The translations under genes and the position numbers were made by a program. A stretch of DNA of 26,755 nucleotides from a virus. Shown here one piece after another: positions 725 through 5,463 of the stretch; the stretch's first letter is position 1, and every line of letters begins with the position of its first letter. The DNA lies in UHGV virus genome UHGV-0229226; one strand, written 5' to 3'. The notes under the pieces were generated by a model. The model saw nothing but the letters and a program-made list of their open reading frames with translations. It was not told the origin of the DNA and did no database searches.

Positions 725-3700
725 TCAGGCACTGCATAATCCTCCGTCCCGACGTGATGACTGCATAATTGACACAACCCTGCTGTCGATCAGATCCACC
801 AGTCCCCTGGCTGACTGCGTATCTATCTCGCCATTGCTCCCTTTATTCTGAATACTGATGTGATATACGGGAGAATAAACAAATCCACCGCCACCATTCA
901 CATTGCCAATGGCTCTGACTCCAAGAGAGCCGTCCGCTGCCCGAGTCAGTGGCATGATAGCTTCAGGCCCGGCCTCGCCCATCAGCCCGGCACCTTTCGC
1001 AAAAGCAAAATACGTCGGGGTATCCACAATGGTGTTACTGTAAGCACTCAGATTTGCCGATGTATAAACACCACCTTTTGCGTTTGCCACTGCACCGGAA
1101 AGCCAGTCGCCGACTGTACCAAGCCATCCTCCGGCACCGGACATGCTTTTGGAAAGTGACTTCAGCCCGTTAACGATGGCAGCGTTCATCAGAATTTTTG
1201 AAACTTCCTGGAGAATTGAACTCCCCCAGTTTCTCCAGTCCACAACATTTCCGGCCAGTGCATCGGAAATATTTGATACCAGCCCGTCCATAGTGGAAAC
1301 GACAGCATCTGCCGCCTGCGAAGCATAATCGGTGGCACTGTCTGCCCAGTTCGTCAGTCCCTCCTGGAGTCCGGCATTCCAGTTACTGCGTAAAGCATCA
1401 GCCTTTGCATAATAATCCTGCTGATCGCTGAGACGCTCTTCCAGATATTTTTCATTCAGAGATTTTTCCTGTTTCCACAGGGCTTCTTCAATTTCTCCGG
1501 CCTGATACTGTCTCAGTAGCTCGTTATTTTTCTGCTCAAACTCCTGCCGGATGCTCCACATTTCCTGAAGTCGTTCACGCATCCGTGAGCCTTCACCATA
1601 TCCCAGTAACTGAGCCTCATTTGATGCTCTGACACTGGCATTACTGGCCGCCAGACTGCTCTCATACGCAGCAAGCTGCTCACGAATCTTTTTCTGGTCG
1701 ATGAGTGCTGCATTCTGCAAAAGCGTTTTTTTCTGCGCTTCTGACAGGGTTGATAATTCGCCCTGGCTGACCTGATATTTCATCTTAGCCAGTTCAGTAT
1801 TCTGCCCTGCCAGTGCTATTTGCTCTTTTTGCTGTTTAATCAGTCGCTTATAAGTATCTTCTATTTTTTCCGCTTCGGTCTTTTTATGCGCTTTGGGTTT
1901 ATTTGCCTGGTTATTTCGCCATGCATCCAGTGAGTTATTTATATAATTCAGTCTTGCTGTCTGATACGCCTCTCCCACAAAGCCGAGATCATCCGCAGCA
2001 TAACCCAGGCGGGCACGCTCACGGGCTTCCCCCTTCAGGCGGGACAGAGCCAGTTCGCGCTCGCTGTTATTCAGTGCGGTCTGCTGTTTATCATCCAGGG
2101 TTGCCTGTGGTAGCCGTAACGGTACATTCACCAGCCCCTGTCGCTGCTGAAGTAATTCATTACCGAGCCCGAGAAGGCGATTAAACTCGGTATGCTGCCC
2201 ATTCATGATCAACAGGGACTGATACGCTTTGTTTTGTTCCGCTGCCTGTTGACGGATCAACGCCACCCGTCGCTCCTCCAGCCCGGCAAGCACATCCTGA
2301 ATGGATTGCGCTTTGCCCTGCATTTGAGTGAGGCGAGACTGTTCAACTGCCAGTTGATTTGTTGCTTCTGCAAGCCCTTCTGTGACAGTTTTTACCGACG
2401 TCATGTGGTTAATCATAAAACCGTTATCGGTTGTCCAACCCGGATTTGCCAGCACATACTGATAGCCAGCAATTTTTTCCTGTAAGGATTTAATCTTACT
2501 TTTCTGCTCGTCAATTAACCTGTTTTGCTCCTTCAGTGCCTGTCGCGTCTTTTCCTCATTATCTGACGCTTCAGGAAGCGACATTGCCGACGTTTTCTGG
2601 CGAATTTCGTCGATTGTTGCGGCATACTGGCGTGCAGATTCTCTGGCCTGCTCCTGATTCTGATACATCGTGTACCAGGCCGCAGCCCCCAGCATGACGA
2701 GTCCCGGCACACCACCAACCAGCCCCAGCGCGCCACTTAATAAACGACTCCCCACTGACGTAACATTATTCAGCGTTGTCTGTGCCGCTGTTCTGGCCGC
2801 AATATTACGGGTAAGTGACGCCTGGGCAGCTGTCAGCTTCGCTTCTGCTGCGGCCTGCCTTTCGGTACCGCGAGCAGCAACAACCGCCTGTTGCGCACGA
2901 TAAACCGCCGCACGCGCCCTGGCGGTTGCTATCTGTGTCCCCCGAAGTTGCACTTCAGCAAGAGCCACTTCGTTTCTGGCTGCAGTAATTAATCCGGCAG
3001 TTGCAGATCCAGCAGACGACGCCATATTGCCAAAATATCGGGCTACCCCGACGGCAACCAGAGCACCGGCAGCGGTTGCCACGGTGTCAATATTGCCTGC
3101 AATACCATTCAGCACACCGGAGAGCGTCTTCGTCACTCCGCTTGCCTCGTTCGCACCACCAACCCAGGCCATAAAGGCGTTTTCAACTTTGGTTGCAGAG
3201 GATGAAACCGTATCAGGCATTGCCGCATATTCATCACGTAATGCCCCAAGCTGACTAATCAGTGCAGGAACAACCTTATCGGCGGTCAACTTTCCGTTAT
3301 CCGCCATGGCCTTCAGATCCTTACGGGCAACTCCCATTCCCGCAGCCAGAGCACGAATAACACGATCGCCGTTCTCATTCACCGAGTTAAACTCTTCACC
3401 GCGCAGCACTCCCTGCGCCAGAGCCTGACTGAACTGCGTGATCACCGAACTGGCTTCTGCTGTACTGGCACCGGATAATTTCAGGCCCGTGGAGATCGCC
3501 TCGGTGACTTTCAATACCTCCTCAGAACTGTAACCATACTCCCGCATGGAAGCTGCAGAGCGGGCAAAAAGGCTGGCGTTATCAGAAAAAGCCGTCCCCG
3601 TTCTCTGGCTGATCGCCATTAATTCACGCTGTGATGACTGAAAATCATCACTGGACTGTGAGGCCTGCTTCAGACGGGCATTTACTGAATTCCACTCATC

Positions 3701-3970
3701 GGCGAGAGAAATAAGATGACCGGTAGCAAAAGCCCCGGCAAATGCCCCCGCCATGTTCAGTGCCGAAGATTTAGCTGTATTTATCTGATCCGTCACTTCT
3801 GCCAGTGCACGCCGCATTTCACGGGATGCAGCAGCGGACTGTCGGCCTCCGTTCTGCATGGTACGGTAGTAATCCTGCCCCATACGCGAAGCCCGGGAGA
3901 TCTCTGACTGGAATGACCGGGAATTTGCCGAGATTTTAATAATCAGTTCACGTAATGTCGCCACACTCAT
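725..3970 (-). CDS. H: Tail tape measure protein (lambda gpH-like)
   Basis: 1081-aa ORF, Ala/Gln-rich with long predicted helical and coiled-coil stretches and glycine-rich hydrophobic segments, sitting between the chaperone pair and M/L as in lambda. Confidence 0.9.
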   Translation of the reverse strand: MSVATLRELIIKISANSRSFQSEISRASRMGQDYYRTMQNGGRQSAAASREMRRALAEVTDQINTAKSSALNMAGAFAGAFATGHLISLADEWNSVNARLKQASQSSDDFQSSQRELMAISQRTGTAFSDNASLFARSAASMREYGYSSEEVLKVTEAISTGLKLSGASTAEASSVITQFSQALAQGVLRGEEFNSVNENGDRVIRALAAGMGVARKDLKAMADNGKLTADKVVPALISQLGALRDEYAAMPDTVSSSATKVENAFMAWVGGANEASGVTKTLSGVLNGIAGNIDTVATAAGALVAVGVARYFGNMASSAGSATAGLITAARNEVALAEVQLRGTQIATARARAAVYRAQQAVVAARGTERQAAAEAKLTAAQASLTRNIAARTAAQTTLNNVTSVGSRLLSGALGLVGGVPGLVMLGAAAWYTMYQNQEQARESARQYAATIDEIRQKTSAMSLPEASDNEEKTRQALKEQNRLIDEQKSKIKSLQEKIAGYQYVLANPGWTTDNGFMINHMTSVKTVTEGLAEATNQLAVEQSRLTQMQGKAQSIQDVLAGLEERRVALIRQQAAEQNKAYQSLLIMNGQHTEFNRLLGLGNELLQQRQGLVNVPLRLPQATLDDKQQTALNNSERELALSRLKGEARERARLGYAADDLGFVGEAYQTARLNYINNSLDAWRNNQANKPKAHKKTEAEKIEDTYKRLIKQQKEQIALAGQNTELAKMKYQVSQGELSTLSEAQKKTLLQNAALIDQKKIREQLAAYESSLAASNASVRASNEAQLLGYGEGSRMRERLQEMWSIRQEFEQKNNELLRQYQAGEIEEALWKQEKSLNEKYLEERLSDQQDYYAKADALRSNWNAGLQEGLTNWADSATDYASQAADAVVSTMDGLVSNISDALAGNVVDWRNWGSSILQEVSKILMNAAIVNGLKSLSKSMSGAGGWLGTVGDWLSGAVANAKGGVYTSANLSAYSNTIVDTPTYFAFAKGAGLMGEAGPEAIMPLTRAADGSLGVRAIGNVNGGGGFVYSPVYHISIQNKGSNGEIDTQSARGLVDLIDSRVVSIMQSSRRDGGLCSA

Positions 3971-3980
3971 TCTCCGGACG

Positions 3981-4002
3981 AAAAAAAACCGCCGAAGCGG
4001 TT
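3981..4002 (-). terminator. Stem-loop plus U-run between GT and tape measure genes (attenuator or terminator-like)
   Basis: Minus-strand reading: AACCGC-TTCG-GCGGTT hairpin followed by T8, lying in the 40-nt gap between the T stop (4011) and the H start (3970). Confidence 0.35.
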
Positions 4003-4010
4003 ATGTTGAC

Positions 4011-4699
4011 TCACTGAGACACTATTAAAAGCGCGTTTTCCAGTCCAGCAAATGGATCTGATACGCCTTCTGTCTGCTCCTTCTCCCACTGAAGAAGCGC
4101 ATCATTCAGTGGCACTTTGACCCCCTGCGCACCGTAAACAGCTGAAACAATCTGGGCAGCCCGGATATCAGCCCGTTCGTCCCCCAGCGGGCTGAACCTG
4201 TCAAATTCTGCCCACATCATGATTTCTGATGCGGACATTTCCCGGCGTAACTCTGACAATGTGCGCCCCATCCTGAGCGCCAGCATCATCAGAAAACGCA
4301 TCCCCGGAAGCGCTACTTTTTTTTAACCTCGCCGGCATCACTGATCAGTTCCAGAGACTGCCGAAGAAGCCGCGCATGCACCGGGCCATACACGGCAATC
4401 ACCTGTTCACGATCATCCTCTGAAAATACAGGTTGCAGTCCGGTATCACACAGAACATCGATGAACAGTTCAACATCCGCTTCCAGATTTCGGCGGGCGC
4501 GCTCCGCAACGGATAACGGTGTCTCATCATCTTTTGCTTTAACGATCTCCTGCCAGCGCAACCAGGCTTCTGCAGAAGGTTCCCGTAATACAACCGTTGC
4601 CCCTTCCCATTCAGGCACATCAACAGTTTTATGGCGAAACCCCGACATCGTTGCCAGTGCCAGATTACGGATATTTTTAGTCATCACATCTATCCTCAT
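4011..4699 (-). CDS. GT: Tail assembly chaperone GT fusion made by programmed -1 ribosomal frameshift
   Basis: The -1 frame ORF 4011..4301 (continuing upstream to 4322) overlaps the G 3' end. The mRNA reads GTT AAA AAA AAG TAG, i.e. an A-AAA-AAG heptamer; after a -1 slip translation continues ...KK-VALPGMRFLMM.... Confidence 0.7.
4313..4699 (-). CDS. G: Tail assembly chaperone (lambda gpG-like)
   Basis: 128-aa ORF directly downstream of the major tail gene (stop/start overlap TAATG at 4699). It ends ...GEVKKK on a poly-A slippery run and is followed by a -1 frame ORF, the classic G/GT arrangement. Confidence 0.8.
   Translation of the reverse strand: MRIDVMTKNIRNLALATMSGFRHKTVDVPEWEGATVVLREPSAEAWLRWQEIVKAKDDETPLSVAERARRNLEADVELFIDVLCDTGLQPVFSEDDREQVIAVYGPVHARLLRQSLELISDAGEVKKK
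4316..4322 (-). other. Slippery heptamer A-AAA-AAG for the G/GT -1 frameshift
   Basis: Run of 8 A on the mRNA at the very end of G. The heptamer is the same X-XXY-YYZ type as the E. coli dnaX frameshift site. The -1 frame is open from this point. Confidence 0.65.
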
Positions 4700-5403
4700 T
4701 AACTGACGGTAACAGTGCAGGAAGTAGAGGTCACCTTGTTAACAGGGCTTGCTGAATCAGAAATCTCGCAGGTATACGCACCGGCATCACCGGATGCTGC
4801 TGATGCCTTACTGAACGTTGCCGCCGTCTGTCCGGAAACAGGAGAACCACCTTTTTTCCAGGCATAAGAATAAGGCGGCACACCACCCGCAGCCTCAACC
4901 GCCATTTCAAGTTTCGCTCCAGAAGAAACCCGCAGCGTGCTTTTTAAATCGACCTTCACTTTCAGCGGCTCTGTCGTCAGCACAGGTTTACCTTTCAGGC
5001 GCAGAGAAAACGTTGCAGCCACAACACCATTGGTTCCTGCAGACCAGGTATGCTGACGCACCTCTGCCATAAAGGTAAATCCGTTGCCTGACGGAAAAAT
5101 AACTTTAAAGCCATACGTGGTGTCATTGTCATAGGCACTGCGCAACGCGTTCTGGGCAGCATTCAGATAAAAGTTGCCTGACATGGAAATCTCTGAAGCA
5201 GCCCCAAGGCCGTTAATATTTTCCTGCTCAACAGAACACAGCGTGGTGACATCAATATCCTGCTTTTGTCCTGCGGTAAACTGCACCTCTTTGATTGTAC
5301 AGCTCAGGCCAAGATAGCTGGCAGAATCCAGGGTTTCTGCTGTTACCGGTGCAGACGAAATCATAATTTTCGTCAGTTGCGAACGCTCAAAATTAGAGGA
5401 CAT
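4699..5403 (-). CDS. Major tail protein with C-terminal Ig-like (Big_2-type) domain
   Basis: 234-aa ORF directly upstream of the G/GT pair. The C-terminal segment (GGVPPYSYAWKKGGSPVSGQTAATF...YTCEISD...TVTVS) looks like a bacterial Ig-like domain, as on lambda gpV. Confidence 0.8.
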   Translation of the reverse strand: MSSNFERSQLTKIMISSAPVTAETLDSASYLGLSCTIKEVQFTAGQKQDIDVTTLCSVEQENINGLGAASEISMSGNFYLNAAQNALRSAYDNDTTYGFKVIFPSGNGFTFMAEVRQHTWSAGTNGVVAATFSLRLKGKPVLTTEPLKVKVDLKSTLRVSSGAKLEMAVEAAGGVPPYSYAWKKGGSPVSGQTAATFSKASAASGDAGAYTCEISDSASPVNKVTSTSCTVTVS

Positions 5404-5414
5404 ACTCGTCTCCT

Positions 5415-5442
5415 GAAAATAATAAAACCCGCCAGCGGCGGG
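5415..5442 (-). terminator. Hairpin plus U-rich tract upstream of the major tail gene
   Basis: CCCGCC-GCT-GGCGGG stem-loop followed on the minus strand by TTTTATTATTTT, between the stop at 5464 and the major tail start at 5403. Confidence 0.4.
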
Positions 5443-5463
5443 TGGGTAAAATCATTAATGACC

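Follow-up and report, generated by a model that had tools for sequence, protein, structure and literature searches.

Our analysis of the virus genome UHGV-0229226 (26,755 nt; this whole stretch is called the window below) was centred on the pair of tail genes that lies between its major tail and tape-measure genes. The window is an HK97-like Escherichia coli prophage, and the slippery heptamer A_AAA_AAG found where the two genes meet is, with a probability of about 90%, the programmed -1 ribosomal frameshift site of a G/GT tail assembly chaperone pair. The anatomy of this site, its reading phase, the gene order, the family membership of the proteins and the conservation of the site are established here. 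The type of site is already known, as the same heptamer and UAG were predicted and measured in a close homologue. The pair would thus be one further instance of the established G/GT recoding rule, with nothing unexpected about tail assembly or frameshifting, and the main value of the finding lies in annotation.

All coordinates refer to the whole window, and all the features of the chaperone pair lie on the minus strand. The features that bear on the site, including the open reading frames (ORFs) and the start codon chosen by the NCBI Prokaryotic Genome Annotation Pipeline (PGAP), are the following:

4313-4684, minus strand: G, tail assembly chaperone of the HK97 gp13 type, 123 aa plus TAG, from its most likely start
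4313-4699, minus strand: longest G ORF, 128 aa, opening at ATG 4699
4323-4325, minus strand: TAA of the -1 frame, directly 5' of the heptamer; this frame reads ...RRG*KKVALPG
4317-4324, minus strand: homopolymer of eight A that takes in the A residues of the heptamer; seven or nine A (A7 or A9) in a few public assemblies
4316-4322, minus strand: slippery heptamer A_AAA_AAG, in phase with G, with AAA in the P site and AAG in the A site
4313-4315, minus strand: zero-frame UAG ending G, directly 3' of the heptamer and followed by C
4011-4316, minus strand: T segment in the -1 frame, 101 codons, VALPGMRFLMM...LIVSQ, with its stop at 4011-4013
4011-4301, minus strand: ATG-started T-like ORF of 96 aa
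4299-4301, minus strand: ATG opening the 96-aa ORF, 11 nt after the UAG
4284-4289, minus strand: ATG ATG of the F-L-M motif; PGAP starts a 92-aa 'tail assembly protein T' at 4289

Around the site, the mRNA sequence is ...GGC GAG GTT AAA AAA AAG TAG CGC TTC CGG GGA TGC GTT TTC TGA TGA TG... (minus strand). Read directly, the end of the G ORF is GTT AAA AAA AAG TAG, just as a preliminary description of this DNA had it, and the heptamer is in phase: base 4322 is the last base of a zero-frame codon, which gives the X_XXY_YYZ phase required for -1 slippage. The TAA at 4323-4325 closes the -1 frame on the 5' side, so a productive shift is confined to the 7-nt overlap between the zero and -1 frames, an overlap that the in-phase A_AAA_AAG fills exactly. 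On the 3' side, the -1 frame stays open for 101 codons, to the stop at 4011-4013, and runs into the 96-aa T-like ORF, also in agreement with that description.

After a slip, reading would continue as GTA GCG CTT CCG GGG ATG..., that is, VALPGMRFLMM.... By translation, the zero-frame G ORF ends in ...SDAGEVKKK*, and the GT fusion predicted from these readings is 224 aa long, with the junction GEVKKK-VALPGMRF. The junction peptide proposed previously, GEVKK-VALPGMRF, had two Lys and needs correction to three, because AAA, AAA and AAG are all decoded before GTA is read. The Glu-C peptide across the predicted junction is VKKKVALPGMRFLMMLALRMGRTLSE, with three Lys.

The sequence AAAAAAG is present ten times in the window, and the copy at 4316-4322 is alone among them in being in phase, with 139 open codons upstream, two codons from the stop, and with a -1 frame of 101 codons. 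Another copy, at 4851-4857 inside the major tail gene, has the wrong phase for -1 slippage.

The longest G ORF matched the Pfam family PF06222 (Phage_TAC_1) over the full profile (positions 1-124, residues 6-128 of the 128-aa ORF), with 195.7 bits and E=2.8e-58, and the HK97 tail assembly chaperone (PDB 2OB9) with E=4.6e-49 and about 64% identity. The downstream -1 ORF matched PF06223 (Phage_tail_T, lambda minor tail protein T) at profile positions 1-69 of 73, with 69.4 bits and E=3.5e-19, both Pfam scores exceeding the gathering thresholds (25 bits for PF06222 and 25.9 bits for PF06223). These matches and the position of the pair between the major tail and tape-measure genes, as expected for the G/GT class, bear out its earlier identification as a tail assembly chaperone pair. 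The designation 'G-like' was right about the chaperone role but not about a likeness to lambda gpG, since G, judged by its sequence, belongs to the HK97 gp13 family and not to that of lambda gpG, which is filed in a Pfam family other than PF06222. In addition, phrog_14766 (224 positions) covers both halves, G at profile positions 1-121 and T at 129-220, so the fused protein is already a recognised family. No model of NCBIfam matched the G or the T ORF.

The start of G is most likely ATG 4684 and not ATG 4699, because the Pfam match, the alignment with 2OB9 (which begins at MTKN...), the PGAP start (the equivalent of 4684) and a Shine-Dalgarno (SD)-like GAGGA located 8 nt 5' of ATG 4684 all agree. 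The G ORF of the preliminary description therefore keeps its end, with the heptamer and the stop, and probably loses its start at 4699 in favour of the 123-aa protein.

Conservation of the site and published precedent

The junction was read in nine named phage and prophage relatives and in about 300 IMG/VR loci, the latter collected with G-only queries from the G proteins of five lineages. A contig scan with the fused 224-aa protein gave 73 pattern-matched stretches, of which tblastn confirmed none, probably an artefact of the frame break. The second ORF was found in the -1 frame in all the lineages read, and in nearly all of these relatives an in-phase motif ending in A_AAG was present at the homologous position. 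Most lineages have 26 nt between this motif and the Met codon of F-L-M, and in others the distance reaches up to 32 nt. The forms of the site were as follows:

Window type, 66 of 68 loci: (G/A)TT AAA AAA AAG, TAG at once
BP-4795 / Stx-phage type, about 63% identical, 78 of 80 loci: AGA AAA AAG, TAG at once
Proteus Pm34 type, about 50% identical, 16 loci: GAA AAA AAG, TAG at once
Burkholderia phi1026b type and Bordetella PHB09, 34-37% identical, 40 of 43 loci: GCA AAA AAG, stop 10 codons on
ECP1, a single locus: G_GGA_AAG, stop 1 codon on
HK97/HK446 and Cronobacter ENT39118: G_GAA_AAG, stop 5 codons on and 1 codon on, respectively
Klebsiella type, 79 of 80 loci: A_GCA_AAG, TAA at once
Further enterobacterial contigs: six with G_GCA_AAG and three with G_GAA_AAG, TAA at once

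Among the window-type loci, the motif and the stop are constant and the flanking codons vary (GGC, GGA, GGT or GTA before, and CGC, AGC or CAC after). The bases around the motif differ by lineage, yet the in-phase A_AAG is kept, which is, on this comparison of sequences, the signature expected of a programmed site.

Between the slip site and F-L-M, the -1 frame encodes a linker that is also kept as protein, with the pattern V/A-x-x-P-x-x-x-F-L-M and the Pro present in ten of the ten lineages read (variants VALPGMRF, VARPEIRF, VAQPDTFF, VSTPGVKF, VKMPGMQF, AVSQPGTFF, AVKQPLTFF, AFEETPDLRF and AFCRTPGLRF). In several lineages, this linker has no start codon and is positioned 3' of the G stop. 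Its conservation in the -1 frame without a start codon implies that the stretch is translated in that frame, which is explained only by the fusion.

A close precedent was published by Antonov et al. (2013), whose GeneTack cluster 'Phage_TAC' (862991913) comprised 41 genes similar to an HK97 protein, two of which were assayed with a GST-MBP reporter in E. coli (PMC3711429). A cassette of the BP-4795 type, with A_AAA_AAG and TAG, gave 7% of -1 frameshifting (PMC3711429, Supplementary Table S2), and a G_GGA_AAG member of the cluster gave 6% +/- 0.61 (PMC3711429). The BP-4795-type cassette resembles the window in its Phage_TAC_1 and Phage_tail_T domains, with about 63% identity over GT, in the same heptamer and TAG-C, and in the 26 nt to the F-L-M Met codon. 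It differs in having six A (AGA AAA AAG) instead of eight, an overlap of 22 nt instead of 7 nt, and the linker VARPEIRF instead of VALPGMRF. The figure of 7% belongs to this homologue and not to the window site, to which it would apply by analogy. The conserved in-phase motif and the activity of the homologous cassette in E. coli both speak for the programmed -1 frameshift that the preliminary description had proposed. Regarding the heptamer itself, Sharma et al. (2014) placed A_AA.A_AA.G in the top three heptamers in E. coli and A_AA.G well ahead of every other tetramer, and credited the shifty tRNA-Lys(UUU) for this efficiency (PMC4066793).

Counter-evidence and alternative explanations

Several observations weigh against a programmed ribosomal frameshift at this site. 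AAAAAAG shows no significant enrichment in the window (10 copies against 7.4 +/- 2.7 expected, with 24 of 100 shuffles reaching 10), and the case rests on position, phase and conservation, not on motif counts. No conserved stimulatory RNA structure was found by minimum free energy (MFE) folding, by folds of each lineage or by RNAalifold on 11 lineages, the MFE fold of the 108 nt at the site being marginal, with z=-1.98; the search for a downstream stem-loop or pseudoknot, suggested previously as a check, thus yielded no conserved nearby hairpin. An upstream SD-like GAGG was also rejected as a stimulator, as it ends 4 nt from the heptamer, which is too close, and is absent in relatives. In another reporter, that of Sharma et al., the signal of bare heptamers lacking stimulators was only 2-10 times the background of 0.055% (PMC4066793), and a level of a few per cent would therefore depend on the context of the heptamer. 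Finally, a run of eight A approaches the length that makes RNA polymerase slip, ATG 4301 and ATG 4289 could in principle allow T to be initiated separately, and the Met codon of F-L-M (ATG 4289) is universal.

Other candidate elements were discarded too. A dnaX-type element combines its heptamer with an SD-like sequence some 10 nt on the 5' side (6-17 nt by the criteria of Sharma et al.) and, 5-9 nt on the 3' side, a stable hairpin; the window site has the heptamer, without an SD or a hairpin of that kind. A weak hairpin CGGGGA/UUUCUG, 9 nt past the heptamer, has a counterpart in BP-4795 (CGGAAA/UUUCUG) and is missing in the Proteus type. A GC-rich hairpin, GCGCUC-N6-GGGCGC (4263-4280, minus strand), was considered as a family-wide stimulator and rejected, being 36 nt downstream and without covariation, a distance too long for classical frameshift stimulation. 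This hairpin is invariant in the 11 lineages aligned with RNAalifold, and it coincides with the conserved A-L-R-x-G-R codons of T, which account for its retention. A search of Rfam at E<=10 gave only noise, with no dnaX or IS frameshift element.

The eight-A run (A8) raises the question of the polymerase: addition of one A by RNA polymerase would produce an A9 mRNA and the identical 224-aa protein with no ribosomal shift, so that GT could come mainly from transcriptional slippage. Programmed transcriptional realignment has been linked, among others, to runs of more than seven A, and the existence of A9 DNA alleles with this exact protein indicates that the fused reading is viable. Efficient slippage of the E. 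coli RNA polymerase is, however, documented at nine A/T and not at the eight found here, and the homologues keep the in-phase A_AAG with six A (BP-4795, Burkholderia), with seven (Proteus) or with no run at all (G_GGA_AAG, A_GCA_AAG), which leaves ribosomal slippage as the shared mechanism. Moreover, the six-A cassette still gave its 7% product, and the phase constraint seen across the family marks ribosomal, not polymerase, slippage. Neither a run of at least nine A/T nor a lack of phase constraint among the homologues was thus found, and transcriptional slippage is quite unlikely as the main source of GT, a minor contribution at this site being possible. The length of the homopolymer also differs among assemblies, as could be the case if a once-fused GT had lost 1 nt in the homopolymer of a cryptic prophage and nothing were programmed. 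Two of 80 IMG/VR loci (L052, L072) have A7, with T moved to the +1 frame and the arrangement broken, and A9, with G and T fused in frame, is carried by about 19 contigs (L321-L327 among them) that come from several Logan runs and from NCBI GCA_001676985.1 and GCA_001630975.1. The A9 contigs are the reason why the exact 224-aa fusion with three Lys appears in public protein sets (CDK90654.1, KZP42445.1, STQ49536.1). These A7 and A9 variants may be genuine alleles created by replication slippage or mistakes in the assembly of the homopolymer. Against gene decay, the two-frame arrangement is the norm, both in the 66 of 68 window-type loci and in the 778 contigs that carry the sequence of the 96-aa T ORF, compared with 12-19 for the fusion. 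At least 80% of the 851-nt G-T region was present in 874 of 5,426 complete E. coli genomes, and the arrangement is common to all the divergent lineages, including the sequenced phages HK446, BP-4795, ECP1 and Pm34. This family-wide -1 arrangement effectively refutes the decay of a fused gene, to which we attach next to no credence.

T could instead be initiated separately, or reinitiated, at ATG 4301 or ATG 4289, the heptamer being incidental. ATG-started ORFs of 96 and 92 aa are indeed present, RefSeq and most GenBank phage records show two genes, and the Klebsiella-type relatives have an ATG 2 nt past the G stop. ATG 4301, however, is not conserved. It is replaced in seven window-type IMG/VR loci (by ATT in five, ATA in one and GTG in one), and its counterpart is ATT in an E. 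coli ST648 prophage and in BP-4795; the codon at 4301 probably encodes an internal Met of GT and does not act as a start. No SD is well placed for either codon, as GGGG adjoins ATG 4301 without a spacer and lies 12 nt from ATG 4289. In addition, the -1-frame peptide 5' of these Met codons is conserved, including its invariant Pro, even past the G stop, and a separate start leaves unexplained the in-phase A_AAG motif at a fixed position in relatives only 34-37% identical. The published Phage_TAC cluster yielded the fusion and is absent from the clusters reported with frameshifting plus downstream initiation (PMC3711429). Separate initiation of T seems on these grounds very unlikely, and a programmed -1 ribosomal frameshift is the explanation that we retain.

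Proposed mechanism and known systems

For a programmed -1 frameshift at this site, we infer its efficiency, the contribution of the stop codon and the action of the products as chaperones. It would proceed as follows. Most ribosomes would end at the UAG at 4313-4315 and release the 123-aa chaperone G, and a minority, a few per cent by analogy with the measured homologue, would slip back one base on A_AAA_AAG. The only tRNA-Lys of E. coli (anticodon mnm5s2UUU) would pair weakly with AAG and re-pair perfectly with AAA. The slipped ribosomes would then read GUA GCG CUU... and make the 224-aa product ...GEVKKK-VALPGMRFLMM..., with a C-terminal domain of the lambda T family. Two routes to the same protein can be proposed, either the classical tandem slip in the P and A sites or a post-translocation slip, when tRNA-Lys occupies the P site on AAG while UAG-C, which is decoded slowly, stands in the A site. 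If the analogy with lambda holds, many G and few GT molecules would coat the tape-measure protein, and the T domain would recruit the major tail protein, allowing a tail tube of the correct length to polymerise.

The UAG at 4313-4315 is a probable 'shifty stop' helper, a concept that reportedly goes back to Weiss et al. in 1987, and a C after the stop codon is a poor termination context. A stop directly follows AAG in five lineage groups, including those with GCA as the P-site codon. That the stop follows AAG even where the P-site GCA cannot re-pair points to a contribution from a stop-assisted slip, in which a single tRNA-Lys moves from AAG to AAA. In the Klebsiella-type A_GCA_AAG_TAA and in the G_GCA_AAG_TAA of other enterobacteria, the P-site tRNA-Ala cannot re-pair in the -1 frame, and the expression of T in these relatives is possible only by the slip of a single tRNA-Lys on A_AAG beside the stop or by reinitiation, the ATG for which (2 nt past the stop) is present in the Klebsiella type and not in the G_GCA_AAG type. 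A broader proposal, which we consider doubtful, is that in the HK97-type chaperone family the slip of a single tRNA-Lys on A_AAG, often with a stop in the A site, and not the classical heptamer for tandem slippage, is the ancestral and sufficient signal, extended to A8 in the window lineage, where GT might be made at three levels: ribosomal slippage, RNA-polymerase slippage and heritable changes between A8 and A9. Were this true, the G:GT ratio would be both tunable and mutable.

The G/GT frameshift is widely conserved in long-tailed phages (Atkins et al. 2016, PMC5009743). In lambda, G and GT are made at a ratio of about 30:1. The tape-measure protein is bound by G, both free and as part of GT, and the major tail protein by the T part; the need of the fusion for tail assembly has been shown for this phage only (PMC5009743). 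G_GGA_AAG is a distinct shift-prone heptamer (PMC5009743). The window pair is like that of lambda in its gene position, in a -1 shift on a heptamer ending in A_AAG, in the homologous T domain (PF06223) and in a low-level fusion; in lambda, however, G_GGA_AAG stands some codons before the G stop, and the window G matched only PF06222. The assignment of G_GGA_AAG as the lambda G/T frameshift site is said to be the work of Levin et al. in 1993, and the conserved G/GT -1 frameshift of long-tailed dsDNA phages was reportedly described by Xu, Hendrix and Duda in 2004. In the gp13/gp14 pair of HK97, G is a clear homologue, the genes stand in the same order and a -1 shift likewise fuses G to a T domain, although in HK97/HK446 the motif is G_GAA_AAG, placed five codons before the stop with a 49-nt overlap, and an extra small ORF lies between T and the tape-measure gene.

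The heptamer A_AAA_AAG was compared previously with that of E. coli dnaX (gamma/tau), and the two are identical, as is the shifty tRNA-Lys(UUU). In dnaX, an SD-like stimulator lies some 10 nt 5' of the heptamer, a strong hairpin follows it by a few nt, and the shift, at about 50%, leads to a shorter product, whereas neither stimulator was found in the window, where the product would be longer and the efficiency expected by analogy is a few per cent. A_AAA_AAG is also the commonest heptamer in the OrfAB transposases of IS3/IS911, which likewise make a fusion at a low, set ratio, but these elements use downstream hairpins or pseudoknots and their proteins are unrelated.

Annotation and neighbouring genes

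In the Hendrix-lab record of phage HK446, the pair is annotated as a joined coding sequence. RefSeq/PGAP and most GenBank phage records split the locus into two genes, named 'phage tail assembly chaperone' and either 'phage tail assembly protein T' or 'DUF4035' protein, and for this reason the 224-aa GT product is missing from most annotations. In the split records, T also begins at an arbitrary internal codon. Over the 851-nt G-T region, identity to NZ_AP022105.1 is 100%, and the region was found as well in 11 sequenced Escherichia phages, with 97-99.6% identity.

The genes on either side of the pair are the following:

4699-5403, minus strand: major tail protein with a C-terminal immunoglobulin (Ig)-like domain; its TAA overlaps ATG 4699 as TAATG
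725-3970, minus strand: tail tape-measure protein, ORF of 1081 aa, with the Pfam matches Phage_HK97_TLTM (2.1e-93), TMP_3 and Tape_meas_lam_C

The start of the major tail protein is annotated variably: PGAP has 234 aa from ATG 5403, and several phage records and gene calls have 251 aa from an upstream start. A terminator-like hairpin, AACCGCTTCGGCGGTT followed by TTTTTTTT, is located at 3979-4002 (minus strand), in the interval from the T stop (4011) to the start of the tape-measure gene (3970), and a second one lies at 5427-5443, upstream of the major tail gene. Terminators are annotated in comparable places in HK446, and partial termination at such hairpins may set the ratios of the tail products. 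An extra small gene is present between T and the tape-measure gene in other genomes, encoding a zinc-ribbon protein in the E. coli ST648 prophage and corresponding to a gp15-like ORF in HK446; in the window, this interval holds the terminator-like hairpin alone, without an extra small ORF.

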